Shown here piece by piece: positions 28,861 through 35,208 of a stretch of 64,000 bases of DNA. The notes beneath the pieces are model-generated. The model was not told the DNA's origin. It did not search any database and was given only the letters and a program-made list of their open reading frames with translations. Origin of the DNA: an uncultured Pseudomonadota bacterium. Lineage in GTDB: Bacteria; Bacillota; Sulfobacillia; JAUYEF01. A program made the position numbers and the translations under genes. The stretch covers positions 24,675-88,674 of the forward strand of contig CAYQIY010000009.1 in NCBI GenBank assembly GCA_964417635.1, in the 5' to 3' direction. The number at the start of each line of letters is the position of its first letter. Position 1 is the first letter of the stretch.

Positions 28861-29829
28861 TTGCATCTTCTGAGTCTCTGCCCTATGACGAAAAAGAGCA
28901 GTGTGTGCATGGGCACGCTCGTAACGCAGCGTGTGTACGGTGTATTTGCGCACAGAGCAATAGAGTGCTGTCAGAGGCTCTTTGAGAGCCTTGAATCTGA
29001 GATGAGTGTGTTTGTCCCCTCAAGCGACATATTCATGCTTAACGCGTCCGCTGGAAAAGGGCCGGTCAAGATCTCTCCCCGAAGTGTCGAAGTGCTCGAG
29101 CTGGCCCAGCGGGTTTCGGTGCTTTCGTCGGGCGCCTTTGACGTGACCGCCGGCGCATTCGTGAACCTATGGAGAACCGCTCTGGCTGAGAACCGAGTAC
29201 CGGATGCTTCAGAAATAGCAGTTACAAGCCGGTTGGTGGACTACCGCAAACTGGTACTTGATAGCAAGCACTCCACCGCACACCTTAAGATACCCGGACA
29301 GTCTGTAGACTTAGGCGGCATCGCCAAAGGATATGCAGCACGGCTCGCACGGGAGACGTATCAGACGTACGGAGTCAAGTCCGCAGTGCTCGACCTCGGC
29401 GGAGCAGTGTTGTTCGTCGGCAGACGTGCTCGTAGTTCGGAGTGGGTAGCGGGAATCCAGCACCCGGCAAAAGAACGCGGTGCGTGTTTTGCGTGTGTAT
29501 CGGTTGTGGATAAGTGCGTGGTAACGTCCGGCGGGTATGAGAGGTACCAGTTGCACGATGGCATAAGGTATCACCACATTATAGACCCGTCTACCGGCTA
29601 CCCTTCAAACAGCGACCTTGTGTCGTGCAGCATTGTGTCCCACGACCCCGTGTGGGCAGATGCGCTTTCAACAGCATGTTTCGTGCTCGGCTCGGAAAGG
29701 GCCATCCACCTAGTAGAGTCCATTGAAGACACACACCTTATACTGCTTACTTCAAATAATGAGGTCTACGTCAGCCCGAGCCTGCGCGACAGTCTTAGAC
29801 TGCTCGATGCCGATATGCGGCTCATCTGA
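28861..29829 (+). CDS. apbE: FAD:protein FMN transferase (ApbE family)
   Basis: 'MGTLVTQRVYG', 'DLGGIAKGYAA', 'HHIIDPSTGYP'. Start uncertain (TTG 28861 or ATG 28885). No convincing signal peptide. Confidence 0.8.
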   Translation: MHLLSLCPMTKKSSVCMGTLVTQRVYGVFAHRAIECCQRLFESLESEMSVFVPSSDIFMLNASAGKGPVKISPRSVEVLELAQRVSVLSSGAFDVTAGAFVNLWRTALAENRVPDASEIAVTSRLVDYRKLVLDSKHSTAHLKIPGQSVDLGGIAKGYAARLARETYQTYGVKSAVLDLGGAVLFVGRRARSSEWVAGIQHPAKERGACFACVSVVDKCVVTSGGYERYQLHDGIRYHHIIDPSTGYPSNSDLVSCSIVSHDPVWADALSTACFVLGSERAIHLVESIEDTHLILLTSNNEVYVSPSLRDSLRLLDADMRLI

Positions 29830-30883
29830 CCCGCCGCTCTAGATCGCGCGTCGGCTCGTCTACGAGCGACGGCAGTATGACGTCCGTATGCCGAGCAACA
29901 TGCGAAACTACCTCTTTGTTCACAAGGTCATCCGGAATGCTTCCCGTAACCGCCGCGAGCAAGTTTGCCACCGCCTTCTCTGCCATTTTACGCCTTGATT
30001 CAAGTGTCGCAGAGCCTATGTGAGGCAGCAAGACTGTATTGTCTAAGCCAGTTAAGGGCTCGGATATATCCACAGGCTCTGAGTCGTACACGTCAAGACC
30101 GGCAGCCCGGAGCTTCTTGGTAAGCAGAGCTTCATACAGAGCGTGTCTATTCACGACAGCCCCTCTACCCACGTTTAGCAGCACACACGTGCGCTTCATC
30201 ATGGCTATTTCGCGCCTGCCGATTAACCCTCTCGTATGCGCGTTCAAGGGTAGGACTACCATCACAAAATCCGAGGTGCGGCAGAGTTCATCGAGCGACA
30301 CGTGTTTTGCACCAACACGCCTTTCGGCTTCATGCCTTCTGACCTTATCCCAGTAGAGAACATTCATGTCAAAACCTTGTGCTCTTCTGGCAACAGCAAG
30401 TCCTATCCTACCGAAACCCATAATGCCGAGAGTCTTAGCGTGCACGTCGACGCCCACCATGAATCCTGGCGACCAAGCCTTCCATCCGCCTGCTCGCAAC
30501 ACGCGGTCTGCCTCAGGAATGCGTCTCGCACACGCAAGCAACAAGCCGAATGCCAAGTCGGCAACCGCCTCTTCTGATACTCCGGGAGTATTGCACACCA
30601 TCACACCATGAGCGGTACAAGCGTCTACGTCGATGTTGTCGTACCCAACAGCCATGTTCGCCACGACTCTAAGCCGGGGTGAACTACGCAGCAGGTGTTC
30701 ATCCACCGTATCAGTTAGCATGGTGAGTAGCCCTTCTGATCGGCTGGCGAAAGACAGAAACTGGTCTTGGGGCACAGGCGTATGCTCATGAGGCCAATAG
30801 TGCGTATCGCAGAACTGCTCTAGCGCTTCGAGCAAATCTGCTGGAAGCAATCTGGTCACATATACACTCGGACGCACGCTCAT
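29822..30883 (-). CDS. D-isomer-specific 2-hydroxyacid dehydrogenase (glyoxylate/hydroxypyruvate reductase-like)
   Basis: 'LGIMGFGRIGLAVARR' NAD fold, 'NVGRGAVVN', 'PHIGSAT'. ATG 30883 chosen; the ORF-track TTG is at 30892. Confidence 0.85.
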   Translation of the reverse strand: MSVRPSVYVTRLLPADLLEALEQFCDTHYWPHEHTPVPQDQFLSFASRSEGLLTMLTDTVDEHLLRSSPRLRVVANMAVGYDNIDVDACTAHGVMVCNTPGVSEEAVADLAFGLLLACARRIPEADRVLRAGGWKAWSPGFMVGVDVHAKTLGIMGFGRIGLAVARRAQGFDMNVLYWDKVRRHEAERRVGAKHVSLDELCRTSDFVMVVLPLNAHTRGLIGRREIAMMKRTCVLLNVGRGAVVNRHALYEALLTKKLRAAGLDVYDSEPVDISEPLTGLDNTVLLPHIGSATLESRRKMAEKAVANLLAAVTGSIPDDLVNKEVVSHVARHTDVILPSLVDEPTRDLERRVR

Positions 30884-30946
30884 TCCCCCCAACTAAGGAT
30901 GCATGTTCTAGTGTTCCTCACGTTGCAGAAGAATAAGCCGTGCACT

Positions 30947-31711
30947 CTAAACGCTCGCGTTCTGAGCATCCTTCAGTTTCTGTTGGTGCCGCATGACGAT
31001 TTCGATTCGCTCTGGGATTGAAATCCTCGATGATACTCCGCTTCCCCCAAGACATCCACCCGGACAGCCGAGCACCTCGTAAAACCCGGGAGCAAGGTTG
31101 GCCGCGTTCTCCAGCAGACGTCTTGAACATTCGCTTCCTGCAGCATCGCTCACAAGAAGCGCCATATATGTCCAGAACGGGGGTTCTGCGTCAAAGCCTG
31201 AATCCGACACATGCCGCCACGCGTTCTGTTCAGAGAGCCAGTCGGATAGCTGCTCAAACGTGACTACCGCATCGGCCGCGCCTTCGTTTTCCGGAAGCGA
31301 AGCCTCATACGCCTTGTGTACGCACGGACTGAAGAACACCACCGACGCACCGCTCCCAAGCCTGCTTCTAAGGCGCCTCGAATGCCAGGTTGCGGGCGAC
31401 GGCACCCGCGACAACAGCGACTCAACGTGCGGGTACTCTTCTCGGACAATCCTGACTACCTTTGGACAGCAAGCAGATATCTGCACGGTATGCTGAGACC
31501 GTTCGGCACTTGCCCGCATCTGCATGATCTCAGGCAACACAGCATTAGTCGGTTCAACCAGCCGAAAACCTAGCGCCTTGAGCGCGCTGGGCAGTTTCTC
31601 ACGTTCGTCATCTCCAAAATGCGCGACAAATGACGGAGCTACACTGGCTGCCACGGGAAACGCCGCCCTAAGCAGCCTCTTCGCTACGGCAAGTCCTGGC
31701 GCTTCCACCAA
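30947..31711 (-). CDS. [FeFe]-hydrogenase large-subunit C-terminal (H-domain)-like protein, minimal 254-aa form
   Basis: 'SVAPSFVAHFG', 'ISACCPKVV', 'FSPCVHKAYE' and 'EVLGCPGGCLGGSG' match the three H-cluster Cys motifs in order. TTG 31711 / GTG 31708 lie 5-8 nt after the GGAGG formed by the upstream gene's terminal Gly-Gly codons. Confidence 0.65.
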   Translation of the reverse strand: MVEAPGLAVAKRLLRAAFPVAASVAPSFVAHFGDDEREKLPSALKALGFRLVEPTNAVLPEIMQMRASAERSQHTVQISACCPKVVRIVREEYPHVESLLSRVPSPATWHSRRLRSRLGSGASVVFFSPCVHKAYEASLPENEGAADAVVTFEQLSDWLSEQNAWRHVSDSGFDAEPPFWTYMALLVSDAAGSECSRRLLENAANLAPGFYEVLGCPGGCLGGSGVSSRISIPERIEIVMRHQQKLKDAQNASV

Positions 31712-31712
31712 T

Positions 31713-31985
31713 CTAACCTCCGAACAGTGGTGAGAACACTTGTATTACATCGGCTTCTTTTAGCACATACCCTTCGTCTATCCTGTGGCCTTTTATTGCG
31801 TACACGAAACAGAACTTCTCGCCGCTGAACCTGATGTTCTCAAGCGCAGATCGAAGCACGGGTTCAAGTGCGTATATTACCTCTTCAAGGCAACCGGCTG
31901 TTGAACCAGGGGCCATCTCTATCTCGTGCGTTTTTTGATTCGCCCATCCCGAAAAGGGCGGTTCAAAGCTAACCGTTACGCGCAG
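31713..31985 (-). CDS. MoaD/ThiS-like ubiquitin-fold protein ending in Gly-Gly
   Basis: C-terminus 'VIQVFSPLFGG'. The in-frame upstream codons encode the expected first beta-strand ('RVTVSF'). AAGGAGG lies 8 nt before CTG 31985. The ATG-only ORF is 31713-31916. Confidence 0.6.
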   Translation of the reverse strand: MRVTVSFEPPFSGWANQKTHEIEMAPGSTAGCLEEVIYALEPVLRSALENIRFSGEKFCFVYAIKGHRIDEGYVLKEADVIQVFSPLFGG

Positions 31986-31998
31986 TTCAGAGCCCTCC

Positions 31999-32232
31999 TT
32001 ACTTCGCCAACCAGCCTCTTACCTGTTCTTCACTCGGAACCTTGCCCTCGAGTTTCTTGACCCCATCGATGATAACCGCAGGAGTCATCATAACCCCGCG
32101 CTCAACAATCTCGCTCAGGTTCGAGACATGAACCACTTCTGCATCGATGCCTGTCTTGCTTACTGTGTCCCGGATGATCTGTTCTACCTTCCTGCATTTT
32201 GCACATCCCGTGCCGAGCACTTCGATTCGCAT
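31999..32232 (-). CDS. Thioredoxin-fold 'redox-active disulfide protein 2'-like
   Basis: 'MRIEVLGTGCAKC' CxxC at the N-terminus, about 77 aa. ATG 32232 lies 6 nt after GGAGGTG. Confidence 0.8.
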   Translation of the reverse strand: MRIEVLGTGCAKCRKVEQIIRDTVSKTGIDAEVVHVSNLSEIVERGVMMTPAVIIDGVKKLEGKVPSEEQVRGWLAK

Positions 32233-32256
32233 GCTACACACCTCCGTAGTTATGGT

Positions 32257-33426
32257 CTATCCCACTATCGTGCCGTACAAGAATCCGGCTAACGTTGACA
32301 TAAGCGACACAAGCAGCACGTACGTGGTCGTCTTTTTCGGCCCAAGCACGCTGTTTATTACGAGCATACTGGGCAGGCTGAGCGCAGGGCCTGCAAGCAA
32401 GAGCGCGAGTGCAGGACCTTGCCCCATCCCCGAGCCGAGCAAACCCTGCAATATCGGAATCTCCGTAAGCGTGGCGAAGTACATGAACGCACCCAGCACG
32501 GACGCGGCGAAGTTTGCCATAAGCGAGTTTCCGCCCACTACCATGCTCACATACCTTGAAGGGATAAGTCCTGCATCAAGCCCCGGACGCCCCATAAGCA
32601 GCCCGGCTGCCAGCACGCCTCCAAAAAGCAGCGGCATAATCCGCTTGGCAAAATCCCACGTCGAGTCTTTCCACTCTGCGAGTTCTTCTCTGGCAAACCA
32701 CGACCTGATCATCCAGCCTAGCGCCAGCAGAAGCGCTCCAACCAGATACCACTTGATCAAGAACACATCGTAGAAGAAACCAATGTTCTCAGCAGGCTTG
32801 CCCCACGCTGCGAACACGAGTATACCCACCAGTACGGCAAAGAACGCACCTGTCTGGCCGAGACTGCGCACAGTCTCTTCAACCTGTTCATGTTCGTGTG
32901 CTTTTAACCGGTCATCTTCCTCGTGCCTGAATATGTGGCTCATGAGCAGGCCAATCACAACCGAGAATACGATTGCGCCCAACGCTCTAGCAAGCCCTAT
33001 CTGCCAACCGAGCACACGTGCGGTCATTATTATGGCGAGCACGTTTATGGCTGGCCCCGAATACAAGAAAGCGCTCGCAGGTCCGAGCCCTGCGCCGCGC
33101 TTGTAGATGCCCATGAAGAGCGGCAGAACCGTGCAAGAACACACTGCCAGCACACTGCCGGATACTGCACCTACGGCATACGCAACCCACTGCTTTGCAC
33201 CTCTACCCAGGTACTTCATGACGGAACGCTGCGAAATGAAGTTCTGCATCGCACCTGCTATGAAAAATGCCGGAATGAGACAGAACAACACATGCTCGCG
33301 TGCATATTCCTGCAGCATGTGCAGCGCCTCAAGCACCGCGCCGCCTACTCTCGGGTCGCCAAGCGGAGCGAAGTAGGCTGTGAGAAAAACCGCGATTATG
33401 ATAAAGAACGTGCTGAGTTCGGACAA
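32257..33426 (-). CDS. DUF318/YraQ-type permease (ArsP-like putative metalloid/thiol permease)
   Basis: About 10 TM helices, 'SVLAVCSCTVLP' motif. Conserved arsR-permease-thioredoxin-like gene order. Confidence 0.7.
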   Translation of the reverse strand: MSELSTFFIIIAVFLTAYFAPLGDPRVGGAVLEALHMLQEYAREHVLFCLIPAFFIAGAMQNFISQRSVMKYLGRGAKQWVAYAVGAVSGSVLAVCSCTVLPLFMGIYKRGAGLGPASAFLYSGPAINVLAIIMTARVLGWQIGLARALGAIVFSVVIGLLMSHIFRHEEDDRLKAHEHEQVEETVRSLGQTGAFFAVLVGILVFAAWGKPAENIGFFYDVFLIKWYLVGALLLALGWMIRSWFAREELAEWKDSTWDFAKRIMPLLFGGVLAAGLLMGRPGLDAGLIPSRYVSMVVGGNSLMANFAASVLGAFMYFATLTEIPILQGLLGSGMGQGPALALLLAGPALSLPSMLVINSVLGPKKTTTYVLLVSLMSTLAGFLYGTIVG

Positions 33427-33432
33427 CGCATT

Positions 33433-33732
33433 TCACTCCTTAGGCATCGTCTGGCAAGACTCGGCGCACTTCCCTTCGAAGACTGCATCGAGACATCTGA
33501 TGAACTGGTAAACGCACGGCATCTTAATCTCATACGTAACGTTAAGCCCGTCTTTGGAGCTGCTGAGTATTCCGCTTGCCTTCATTAGCCCGAGGTGTCG
33601 GGATATGGTTGACTGGTCGTACGGCAACCTTTCCACAAGCTCGCACACGCATTTGGGGCCTTCAGTGGCGAGTATCTCGACTATCTTGAGCCTTGTTTCA
33701 TGGCCGAGCGCCTTAAATACGTTTACTTTCAA
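33433..33732 (-). CDS. arsR: ArsR/SmtB-family metalloregulator
   Basis: 'FKALGHETRLKIVEIL..CVCEL..STISRHL'. TTG start 7 nt after GGGAGGG. Confidence 0.85.
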   Translation of the reverse strand: MKVNVFKALGHETRLKIVEILATEGPKCVCELVERLPYDQSTISRHLGLMKASGILSSSKDGLNVTYEIKMPCVYQFIRCLDAVFEGKCAESCQTMPKE

Positions 33733-33795: not shown

Positions 33796-34863
33796 TCATT
33801 TCGTACCGACATGCGGGGGAGGAAACCAGTGTTTGGTGCGGTTGGCAAAGGCCACTAAACTGAGCATGAGCGGTACTTCCACAAGAACCCCCACGACCGT
33901 TGCGAGCGCTGCGCCCGAACCGAGACCAAAGAGCGATATAGCGACGGCAACTGCGAGCTCAAAGAAATTGCTCGCGCCTATCATGGCGGCTGGGGCGGCA
34001 ACAGTACGATCCACCTTCCACGCTCTCGCCCAGAAATACGCTATCCCAAAGATTAGGTACGTCTGTATGCTCAGCGGTACCGCTATCAGTAGGATGTGAA
34101 GAGGATTGCTTACTATTGTTTCACCCTGGAAAGAGAACAAAATCACGAGCGTGGTAAGCAGTCCCATGATGGCAAAAGGTTTTAGCCTCGGCAGGAACTG
34201 TTGCTTGAGCCACTCTTGCCCGTGCGTGCGGACGAGTCTTACCCGGGTGATGTAGCCCGCTATGAGCGGGATAACAACGTAGAGCACTACAGACATCACA
34301 ATGGTATCGTATGGCACGCTAAGTTCGGCCAGCCCCAGTTGAAACACCACTATAGGCGCGTACAGAAAGAGCAAGATTATGTCATTGACGGATACTTGTA
34401 CCAGAGTGTGTGCAGCGTTGCCCTGGGTGAGATAACTCCACACAAACACCATGGCGGTGCACGGTGCGGCGCCAAGCAGTATCGCGCCTGCAACATACTG
34501 CTGACCCAAGTCGGCAGCGATCCACGGAGCGAACACAACTCGCAAGAAAAACCACGAGATGGCCAGCATTGTAAACGGTTTGATCAACCAGTTCACAACC
34601 AACGTCACAGTCAGTCCTTTAGGCTGACGAGACGCGCGCACAATACTGCCTAAGTCTATCTGCACCATCATTGGATAGATCATGAGCCAGATGAGAACGG
34701 CCACAGGCACCGACACTTGGGCGTACTCCCATCTGCTGAGAATTCGCGGGAACGAGGGGAACACTAGACCTATCAGCACTCCAAGCGCGATGCATAGCGC
34801 CACCCAGACGCTCAGATACTTCTCAAACGCTCCTAGTCCACTGCCAGATTGTGTGTCTGCCAT
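33796..34863 (-). CDS. acr3: Arsenite efflux permease, ACR3 family
   Basis: '[20 protein letters not shown]' N-terminus, 10-TM BART-type sequence. Start lies 3 nt after the arsR stop. Confidence 0.85.
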
Positions 34864-34866
34864 CGA

Positions 34867-35208
34867 CTATCTCCTTTCGGCTTCTGTACCACATGGGTCA
34901 ACCATGGGTATGTATGGTTCGGGCTCTGGCGCTCCGATTAGTTTCCGACACTCCCGGATTATCTCATTGACCTCTTGAGATGACAGGCTATAGAACACAT
35001 AGGCACCTTTACGGTAACATTTCACTATCCCCGCACGTTTCATCACAGCCAAATGCTGCGAAATGTTGGGTTGTGTCGCTTCGAGCGCACTAAGAATCTC
35101 GCATACGCACTTCTCTCCCGTATGCAGCATATGCGCTATACGCAACCTTAACGGATGCCCAAGCGCCCTCAGCGCCATGGCGGTATCGGTGTCGTCCGGC
35201 ATGTGCAT
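34867..35208 (-). CDS. arsR: ArsR/SmtB-family metalloregulator
   Basis: 'ALGHPLRLRIAHML..CVCEI..PNISQHLAVMK'. Confidence 0.85.
   Translation of the reverse strand: MHMPDDTDTAMALRALGHPLRLRIAHMLHTGEKCVCEILSALEATQPNISQHLAVMKRAGIVKCYRKGAYVFYSLSSQEVNEIIRECRKLIGAPEPEPYIPMVDPCGTEAERR

Follow-up and report, generated by a model that had tools for sequence, protein, structure and literature searches.

The 64,000-nucleotide stretch of contig CAYQIY010000009.1 analysed here (the window; assembly GCA_964417635.1, from an uncultured bacterium) carries on its minus strand a gene for a short protein of the [FeFe]-hydrogenase H-domain type, which is directly preceded by a gene for a ubiquitin-like protein of the MoaD/SAMP1 type and, further upstream, by genes for arsenic resistance (Table 1). 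We refer to the first two products below as the H-domain protein and its partner. The plus-strand frame across 30947-31711 is full of stops and the coding strand is the minus strand. Translation can start at either of two codons, and the 253-residue version is the entry recorded by public gene callers (P0001).

Table 1. Genes and translation signals of the H-domain locus in the window, in order of transcription.
Feature	Position	Strand	Evidence and remarks
Second ArsR paralogue, CVC motif 'EKCVCEI'	34867..35208	minus	PF01022, NF033788; 3 nt upstream of ACR3
ACR3 arsenite efflux transporter	33796..34863	minus	TIGR00832 equivalog 394.9 > 282.8
ArsR repressor, CVC As(III)-binding motif 'PKCVCEL'	33433..33732	minus	PF01022, NF033788
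ArsP_1-family permease (organoarsenical-exporter family), VCSCT motif	32257..33426	minus	PF03773 251 bits; CSC motif
ArsE-type thioredoxin-like protein (Thioredoxin_3), CAKC redox motif	31999..32241	minus	PF13192 91.7 bits; TIGR00412 'MTH895/ArsE family' 90.7 > 62
AAGGAGG Shine-Dalgarno	31994..32000	minus	8 nt upstream of proposed CTG 31985; overlaps TAA stop of thioredoxin-like gene
MoaD/SAMP1-type ubiquitin-like beta-grasp protein (partner)	31713..31985	minus	90 aa, ends ...SPLFGG-stop, probable CTG start 31985
H-domain protein	30947..31711	minus	starts at TTG 31711 (254 aa) or GTG 31708 (253 aa)
D-2-hydroxyacid dehydrogenase (glyoxylate-reductase-like)	29822..30892	minus	PF02826, PF00389; NF009714 368 bits < 455

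The H-domain protein contains four sequence blocks in the order found in hydrogenases: SVAPSFVAHFG, ISACCPKVV (with C81 and C82), FSPCVHKAYE (C130) and EVLGCPGGCLGGSG (C216 and C220). A first-pass annotation, made from the sequence alone, had described a 254-residue reading frame with these blocks, and its limits proved exact. The PF02906 (Fe_hyd_lg_C) match, a check named beforehand in that annotation, scores 98.6 bits with an E-value of 5.8e-28 against a cut-off of 22.1 and is far above chance. As the annotation had also stated, the protein carries no ferredoxin-like, PAS or other sensor domain; a Pfam scan detected PF02906 alone and neither Fer4, PAS nor any other domain. NCBIfam hydrogenase models gave only partial matches, far below their cut-offs, and a sequence search of the Protein Data Bank (PDB) returned [FeFe]-hydrogenases only, with the alignment in two pieces and a gap between them.

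By alignment the ligands of a [4Fe-4S] cubane are predicted to be C82, C130, C216 and C220. K133 is equivalent to K358 of the hydrogenase CpI, and A25-P26-S27 to A230-P231-S232. At the positions of CpI C299, M353 and M497 the window protein has Cys, Ser and Leu, which is not the set of residues that marks the catalytic groups A and B; the first of these is C81, a free cysteine at the proton-relay position and beside the cluster ligand C82. The spacing from C130 to C216 is 86 residues, compared to what we take to be 144 between C355 and C499 by the CpI numbering. A fifth cysteine, C195 (region 31125-31130 of the window), belongs to a motif of the form 'G(L/I/M)xxC' that precedes the third cysteine motif (L3) by about 20 residues. 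This cysteine is found in about 20 of the 31 clade members introduced below and in many HydS-like and group-B-like relatives, although the window copy is offset by one residue.

A model of the H-domain protein predicted by AlphaFold2 with 12 homologues as input is confident (predicted local distance difference score, pLDDT, 93.8; predicted template-modelling score, pTM, 0.91). Its best 50 matches in Foldseek are all H-domains of [FeFe]-hydrogenases, with query-normalised template-modelling (TM) scores of 0.69-0.82 and 15-21% identity; the TM score to CpI is about 0.78, and CpI and other H-domains together give 0.77-0.82. The window protein is thus predicted to share the [FeFe]-hydrogenase H-domain fold with its cubane site intact. 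No HydE, HydF or HydG gene was recognised in the 64-kb window: searching all six frames for the radical-SAM CxxxCxxC motif and for P-loops gave nothing plausible, and the genes up to about 10 kb away from the H-domain gene have housekeeping functions by Pfam annotation and include no maturase candidate, in agreement with the earlier statement that maturases are missing.

The gene directly upstream went unmentioned in the first-pass annotation and is the strongest functional clue at the locus. The open reading frame list and public data (P0200) give it as only 67 codons, starting with ATG 31916 (31713-31916). Upstream of this ATG the frame remains open. The sequence RVTVSFEPPFSGW encoded there corresponds to the N-terminal strand of the homologous proteins, and so does LRVTVSFEPPFSGW, which aligns with the same strand; frame and homology reach 23 codons upstream, to CTG 31985. 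Because this CTG sits 8 nt after an AAGGAGG sequence, the frame is open and the homology extends upstream, the gene probably starts at the rare CTG codon with a product of 90 residues, and the public call is likely mis-annotated. The stop codon is separated from the H-domain start by 1 nt, and the Gly-Gly codons GGAGGT at the end of the partner gene form the Shine-Dalgarno sequence of the H-domain gene, an arrangement from which the two genes are read as translationally coupled. The possibility that the 67-codon frame and the H-domain frame are one frameshifted gene was considered and rejected, as the small frame is a complete MoaD-like gene with its own stop in every locus.

The partner is recognisable as a beta-grasp protein, albeit at scores below the thresholds of the sequence models. 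TIGR01687 (moaD_arch) aligns to residues 11-90 of the 90-residue form with 20.2 bits (cut-off 49.5), and PF02597 (ThiS) gives 14.7 bits (cut-off 22.5). The homologous partners in five other loci (L013, L008, L010, L012 and L003) pass PF02597 with 25-35 bits, those of L002 and L009 score just under the same gathering score, and the family as a whole also matches the NCBIfam moaD_arch and SAMP1 models below their cut-offs. AlphaFold2 predicts a beta-grasp fold for the 90-residue form (pLDDT 86.3), for which the best Foldseek matches are Haloferax SAMP1 (TM 0.78) and the MoaD subunits from a number of molybdopterin synthases (TM 0.72-0.75). Public annotations of the paired proteins read 'hypothetical' or 'MoaD/ThiS family protein'.

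The pairing of the two genes is general among close relatives of the H-domain protein. A small reading frame ending in Gly-Gly, or in two cases Ala-Gly, directly adjoins the H-domain gene in 11 of 12 distinct contexts, compared to none of 86 HydS-like and other loci (Fisher p = 1e-13). Many loci are redundant, and the statistics therefore use distinct contexts; the background was not de-replicated, and most of the 80 metagenome loci proved to be HydS-like and are counted in it. The sole context lacking a partner is L034, in which the contig ends 250 nt after the H-domain gene. Where a partner is present it ends in GG in nine of the 11 contexts and in AG in the other two, with homologous endings such as ...AKIGG, ...PILGG, ...ATQGG, ...PFLGG, ...AFGG, ...SYGG and ...SFGG. 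In a reciprocal profile search the partner homologues P0191, P0195 and P0197 were all found to adjoin short Fe_hyd_lg_C genes.

In MoaD, ThiS, TtuB, CysO and SAMP the C-terminal Gly-Gly is adenylated and converted to a thiocarboxylate. The present pair resembles TtuA-TtuB, MoaD-MoaE, ThiS-ThiG and CysO-CysM, in which a Gly-Gly beta-grasp protein is encoded beside the enzyme that it serves, but differs from these carrier-enzyme pairs in having no adjacent E1 gene. TtuA is an Fe-S enzyme, as is proposed for the H-domain protein, although its cluster has three cysteine ligands rather than the four predicted here and its fold is unrelated.

A word-indexed search with the H-domain protein recovered only one relative, with 47% identity; an exhaustive HMMER scan of 1.84 billion representatives recovered 1906. 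The closest of these are standalone proteins of 230-275 residues with 27-37% identity. The next-closest include many proteins of about 570 residues in which Fer4, H-domain, PF04060 FeS and PAS follow in this order, which by domain content is the architecture of putative sensory (HydS-type) hydrogenases. P0008, P0012, P0016, P0017 and P0021 have this multidomain architecture and the window protein does not. The group C/D HydS proteins (TmHydS, TamHydS) were the nearest sequence relatives in the exhaustive search, and the compact H-domain is common to both. A 75-residue linker that follows the H-domain in HydS-like proteins was considered as a possible fused MoaD-like domain, and this was rejected, as a profile of the partner matches 0 of 206 proteins. 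We also note P0004, a protein of 4122 residues in which the profile, from L1 to L2, is matched 14 times over in separate stretches; this may be a genuine giant, built of repeats that include partial H-domain segments, or else an artefact of assembly or gene calling.

In a rough neighbour-joining tree of 174 H-domains, all short proteins that could be linked to a partner gene fall into one clade with 31 representatives, 29 of them short. The clade comprises about 30 clusters of short bacterial proteins (230-310 residues) nested among HydS-like sensory [FeFe]-hydrogenases; the clusters share less than 50% mutual identity, and the metagenome-assembled genomes (MAGs) in which they occur are labelled Bacillota, Ignavibacteriales and other lineages. 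All members retrieved are bacterial, and GCA_013178305.1, GCA_029781155.1 and GCA_024653225.1 are examples of MAGs in which they are found. The sub-branch of P0152, P0154 and P0049, and also P0042, have a ferredoxin domain with 7-9 cysteines fused to the N-terminus of the H-domain.

Conservation within the clade is strong at the cubane site and mixed around it. The four cubane-ligand cysteines, which the first-pass annotation had correctly singled out, and the K358 equivalent are present in 31 of 31 members, each of the three residues of the A-P-S loop is kept in at least 28, and the E361 equivalent in 26. The adjacent cysteine pair that the same annotation had listed as a motif is kept in the window protein, but its first cysteine is not a feature of the clade: the C299 position is Ser in 25 members, Cys in three (including the window protein), Ala in two and Asn in one. 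At the M353 position 27 members have Gly and four have Ser, and at the M497 position 29 have Leu.

The feature that sets the clade apart is a deletion. When a profile of the standalone set was compared to PDB sequences, its positions ~184-196 aligned both to 'FGxTGGVME' and to the later 'VAxxNGLxN' strand (HydA2, HydA1, CrHydA1), and this double alignment indicates that the 39-86 residues between the two points are missing from the clade. All HydS-like and group-B-like relatives inspected keep the helix '(F/Y)PxxGG(V/I/L)xxAxG', which corresponds to F417-A427 of CpI. Direct alignment shows this helix to be absent from the window protein and from 29 of the 31 clade members; the two exceptions, on a long branch at the base of the clade, resemble HydS-type sequences that have been misplaced. 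Between the L2 and L3 cysteines the clade has a median spacing of 88 residues, compared to 107 for HydS-like proteins and 113 for group-B-like proteins of 400-499 residues, so that the clade lies about 20 residues below even the compact sensory enzymes. In CpI the F417-A427 helix lines the [2Fe] site. The specific loss of this helix is the real structural mark of the clade. The short spacing had been remarked on in the first-pass annotation, which had asked which segment a structural model would lack and had taken the protein for an H-domain derivative rather than a standard enzyme; the helix loss answers the former, and the latter is supported.

Being shorter than all characterised H-domains, the window protein might be taken for what is left of a HydS-type gene that has lost its function and is decaying. 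This is hardly credible: the reading frame is intact and the model confident, about 30 clusters at less than 50% mutual identity retain the same invariant residues and the same partner gene, and the H-domain gene is coupled to that partner and lies in an identical operon in four independent metagenomes. The pattern of conservation effectively refutes it.

The surroundings of the pair in the window are those of an ars operon. On the minus strand the order is ArsR, ACR3, ArsR, ArsP_1, Thioredoxin_3, MoaD-like, H-domain and 2-hydroxyacid dehydrogenase, with successive gaps of 3, 63, 6, 15, 13, 1 and 54 nt, and with its CVC-type ArsR and its ACR3 this is a bona fide ars operon. One CVC ArsR precedes ACR3 and the other precedes the permease, thioredoxin-like, MoaD-like and H-domain genes, which suggests that the two paralogues may define two separately regulated units. 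The dehydrogenase gene, 54 nt downstream, may be co-transcribed, although its membership of the module is uncertain; it was considered as a phosphite dehydrogenase (PtxD), for which we make no claim, as the best model is glyoxylate reductase and the score is below its cut-off. The same arrangement, dehydrogenase included, is present in four other metagenomes, in copies at least 99.9% identical, which leaves no power for an analysis of the ratio of nonsynonymous to synonymous substitution rates (dN/dS). A gene for an ApbE flavin transferase (28861-29829, plus strand) converges on the end of the operon and is followed by a gene for an FMN_bind protein in a longer public contig; both are probably unrelated to the ars cluster.

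An ArsR-ArsP-ArsE core is already known, for example from an operon of Pseudodesulfovibrio mercurii ND132 (bioRxiv 10.1101/2022.10.17.512643). The window shares with such operons an ArsR, an ArsP-family permease and a PF13192/TIGR00412 thioredoxin-like protein that scores as ArsE, whereas the MoaD-like/H-domain pair is an addition not mentioned in the description of those operons (bioRxiv 10.1101/2022.10.17.512643). Enterobacterial plasmids likewise have the permease-thioredoxin pair without an H-domain protein, and no close homologue of the H-domain protein was found in the plasmid collection. We do not equate the H-domain protein with ArsF of ArsEFG, as the papers that cite ArsEFG give no domain information and NCBIfam has no ArsF or ArsG model. 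The SAO system (Haft and Gwadz) was also considered and rejected: its SaoE/SaoT proteins are related, but the system includes neither an H-domain nor a MoaD component.

Arsenic genes also surround the pair in most of the relatives. The four core ars families occur as neighbours in eight of 12 contexts and in none of the 86 background loci (p = 3e-9), and by annotation of neighbours about 10 of 13 contexts are linked to arsenic. In L013 the order is ArsR, Usp, ACR3, H-domain, MoaD-like and MarR, followed by ArsM (271.5 > 263) and ArsN2 (146.9 > 125). L110 has ACR3, H-domain, MoaD-like and then a PF04060 protein, and L008 has ArsP_1, Trx_3, H-domain and MoaD-like. L009 has ArsR, a truncated ACR3, H-domain and MoaD-like, and then PadR and a split ArsP_1. 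In L109 the H-domain gene is accompanied by genes for a ThiS-like protein, ArsR/MarR and ArsP_1, with Trx_3, DGC and another ArsR-ArsP_1 nearby; in L002 by a divergent ArsN2 (141.9 > 125) together with AOR and molybdopterin enzymes; and in L034 and L001 by an adjacent ArsR. L003 carries a split ArsP_1, Trx_3, DnaJ, MoaD-like and H-domain, after which come genes for a PhnD-family binding protein and a two-component system, as well as for a full-length ArrA-like molybdoenzyme (1153 bits). The association with metalloid chemistry, which the first-pass annotation had offered as a guess, was therefore a good one, given the ars operon in the window and the ACR3, ArsR, ArsM, ArsN2 and ArrA genes beside relatives.

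Not all contexts are of this kind. The L005-type loci have iron-containing alcohol dehydrogenase (Fe-ADH), aldolase, MTHFR and URO-D neighbours and an H-domain with a fused ferredoxin domain, and L010 and L012/L113 lie near thiM/thiD/thiE. In L010 (1855-3536) and L113 (8537-10943) the genes thiM and thiD, with thiE also in L113, are on the opposite strand just downstream of the pair. The MAGs of L010 and L113 are labelled Ignavibacteriales and Bacillota and yet their pairs are closely related, and the two thiamine contexts may not be independent observations. Most HydS-like loci have a second H-domain gene, but none was found in the vicinity of the clade members.

Several of these loci show further features. 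Directly downstream of the H-domain gene in L003 (8808-16699) are genes for the periplasmic binding protein of the PhnD family, for a histidine kinase and response regulator, and for NrfD, the ArrA-like molybdoenzyme, a 4Fe-4S subunit and a TorD-like chaperone, which by their annotation look like a sensing system of the AioX/ArxX-S-R type together with a reductase for arsenate respiration; on the upstream side are three genes with DGC domains, of which one is fused to GcvH. In L009 (5504-5902) the ACR3 gene is cut to about 132 codons and overlapped by the H-domain frame, with a partner that ends in Ala-Gly, and judging from the frames this is apparently a decayed ACR3 beside an intact pair. 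Small PF04060 'putative Fe-S cluster' proteins are encoded near the pair in L110 (2114-2515) and L109 (6403-6969); the same module follows the H-domain in HydS-like proteins, and the small proteins may be a separate electron-transfer partner. L109 also has a class V aminotransferase near the pair.

A direct explanation of the arsenic association is that the pair acts on arsenic itself. The thiocarboxylate tail and the cubane pocket would then together create an As-S site at which As(III), As(V) or organoarsenicals are thiolated or reduced, with export of the products by the ArsP-type permease or ACR3. Tight placement of the module between efflux genes and regulators in the window, L003, L008, L013 and L110 is consistent with this, as is its co-occurrence with ArsM, ArsN2 and ArrA, and the free C81 beside the cluster ligand could add a second sulfur ligand. 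However, C81 is not conserved in the clade, the module is also present in L005-type loci, L010 and L012/L113 with no arsenic gene nearby, and in the literature searched we found no precedent for thiocarboxylate-dependent arsenic chemistry, nor do we know of one. We regard direct action on arsenic as rather unlikely. A more fully specified form, in which the cubane pocket takes up the tail of the carrier and passes its sulfur to As(III) or to methylated or aromatic arsenicals, or holds arsenic in place of [2Fe], would be a hitherto unknown enzyme system, providing anaerobes with an enzymatic route to thioarsenicals or a ferredoxin-driven arsenical reductase with products leaving via ArsP or ACR3, and seems to us a shade more doubtful.

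The frequency of ArsR, MarR and PadR among the neighbours raises a different possibility, namely that the H-domain protein is a redox or small-molecule sensor, derived from a HydS-like domain that has shed its PAS output and signals by protein contact, for example with ArsR or MarR, while the ubiquitin-like protein serves as an adaptor or modifier. The closest relatives are putative sensory hydrogenases, and H-domains serve as sensor modules in sigma-54 activators (PMC6615313). Yet the protein lacks an output domain and shows no conserved fusion to any regulator, the ferredoxin domain fused to some members suggests electron throughput, and the CVC ArsR proteins already sense As(III) directly. 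A sensor of this kind thus appears improbable.

The account that we favour, although our judgement on it as a whole is evenly divided, is that the H-domain protein is a cubane-only Fe-S enzyme, that its partner is a sulfur carrier, and that the two form an accessory module controlled by ArsR. The protein most likely keeps only the [4Fe-4S] cubane and does not convert H2. It would work as an obligate pair with the MoaD/SAMP1-type protein encoded upstream. Loss of the F417-A427 helix would leave the pocket of the [2Fe] subcluster open, and we infer that the flexible Gly-Gly (thio)carboxylate tail of the partner could enter this pocket, beside the cubane and the Lys, Ser and Glu residues that in hydrogenases bind the cyanide ligands of [2Fe]. 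The cluster, fed with electrons in some members by the fused 2x[4Fe-4S] ferredoxin domain, would perform a reduction or a sulfur transfer by which the sulfur of the carrier is loaded or used; the presence of that fusion supports a redox role. We prefer to see the module as an arsenic-inducible sulfur relay, which would sustain thio-cofactor or thiol chemistry when As(III) poisons the trafficking of sulfur as cysteine persulfide. A sulfur relay would cover the neighbourhoods of ars genes, of ArrA and AOR molybdo- and tungsto-enzymes and of thiamine genes alike, and ars operons do carry genes that back up arsenic targets, such as folE (PMC9144182).

Several observations weigh against a cubane-only sulfur-relay enzyme. 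Three or four contexts lack arsenic genes. Neither in the window flanks nor in any locus examined were genes for an E1-type enzyme (ThiF/MoeB), MoaE, a rhodanese or a JAMM protein found beside the pair; one E1 enzyme can serve several carriers, and the missing adjacent E1 gene is therefore not fatal. No natural fusion of H-domain and partner was found when the partner profile was searched against the 206 retrieved proteins. All four cluster ligands are cysteines, which leaves no open iron site of the sort used by sulfur transferases of the TtuA type. The equivalents of K358 (31/31), S232 (at least 28/31) and E361 (26/31), which contact the ligands of [2Fe] in hydrogenases, are kept in the clade. 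Finally, the clade shares its pocket substitutions (M353 to G/S, M497 to L, C299 to S/A) with the group C/D sensory hydrogenases, and these bind the full H-cluster; TamHydS has A137/S191/L291 (PMC11803613). Since TamHydS, with similar residues, binds the full H-cluster, the pocket substitutions alone are no argument against a [2Fe] subcluster.

The last of these points lead to what we consider the first of the alternatives, albeit an unlikely one: a genuine and extremely compact [FeFe]-hydrogenase or H2 sensor with a complete H-cluster, in which the MoaD-like protein is a structural small subunit that fills the gap left by the helix. Desulfovibrio-type enzymes offer a parallel, in that their H-domain is completed by a small subunit of its own. 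Oxidation of H2 could then pass electrons to the thioredoxin-like protein for the reduction of arsenicals. Such a protein would be expected to conserve the four H-cluster cysteines, K358, E361 and the A-P-S loop, as the clade does, and the window protein retains in addition the proton-relay cysteine at C299. The nearest relatives are HydS-like, and the substitutions in the pocket are those of TamHydS and TmHydS, which bind the H-cluster (PMC11803613). Likewise, the group E 'ultraminimal' [FeFe]-hydrogenases of DPANN archaea, with a mean length of 286 residues, take up [2Fe]adt, evolve H2 after artificial maturation and are described as fermentative, although HydEFG are mostly missing from the genomes (PMC11216029). 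Small size and missing maturases, which the first-pass annotation had read as signs of a protein other than a hydrogenase, are both real but consequently not decisive, and its appeal to HydS as a model for a cubane-only protein was a poor analogy, given that group C/D HydS bind a complete H-cluster (PMC11803613).

The group E proteins are similar to the window protein in that they consist of an H-domain only, are of similar size (286 residues on average compared to 254), have a single [4Fe-4S] site and belong to the same B-E superclade; they differ in being archaeal, and their published description reports neither a ubiquitin-like partner nor an ars context. HydS proteins share with the clade the substitutions M353 to G/S and M497 to L/S, and often C299 to A/S, but are of about 570 residues with an N-terminal Fer4 and C-terminal PF04060 FeS and PAS domains, keep the GGVxE helix, bind a full H-cluster (PMC11803613), lie next to other hydrogenase genes and have no MoaD-like neighbour. 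It is such differences that count against a compact hydrogenase. The F417-A427 helix is lost, although every relative inspected keeps it, and C299 is Ser in 25 of 31 members. No other hydrogenase or maturase genes were found near the pair, whereas HydS-like loci almost always adjoin further hydrogenase genes. A conserved Gly-Gly terminus such as that of the partner marks an activated carrier or modifier and not a structural subunit, and nothing obvious ties the ars, thio-cofactor and thiamine contexts to H2. After the cubane-only enzyme with its sulfur carrier, we therefore place the minimal hydrogenase or H2 sensor ahead of a direct arsenic-sulfur enzyme, and the latter ahead of a sensor.

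The closest conceptual parallel to the cubane-only enzyme is Nar1/NARFL, a eukaryotic relative of the H-domain in the cytosolic iron-sulfur protein assembly (CIA) pathway, which has Fe-S clusters but no [2Fe] and does a job other than that of a hydrogenase. The role proposed for the clade would be the same kind of evolutionary recruitment. Nar1 is, however, eukaryotic and larger, has an extra N-terminal cysteine cluster and has no MoaD-like partner or metalloid context, and Nar1 proteins were not among the top matches of the exhaustive HMMER scan. Full-text searches of the literature for the H-domain together with arsenic or MoaD found no description of the present pairing. We regard the clade as a functional subfamily that is new to the H-domain superfamily, has its own defined partner and genomic context and is comparable in concept to Nar1.

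To our knowledge, H-domain proteins other than eukaryotic Nar1 are treated and counted in genome and metagenome surveys as hydrogenases or H2 sensors. The bacterial clade described here is defined by three marks: a specific deletion in the [2Fe] pocket, an obligatory MoaD/SAMP-like partner and a strong association with arsenic genes. Should its members bind [2Fe] after all, they would be the smallest H-cluster proteins known, and the F417 helix would be dispensable, which would be relevant to the design of minimal hydrogenases. If they are cubane-only, this would mean that the hydrogenase scaffold has been recruited a second time, independently, to chemistry other than that of hydrogen, and would correct the over-counting of hydrogenases in anaerobic MAGs. 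We know of no enzymes that account for the interplay of sulfur and arsenic in anaerobes, including thioarsenicals, the anaerobic transformation of organoarsenicals and the protection of thio-cofactors; with a cubane-only enzyme and its carrier, two uncharacterised genes would join the arsenic-resistance repertoire of these organisms.

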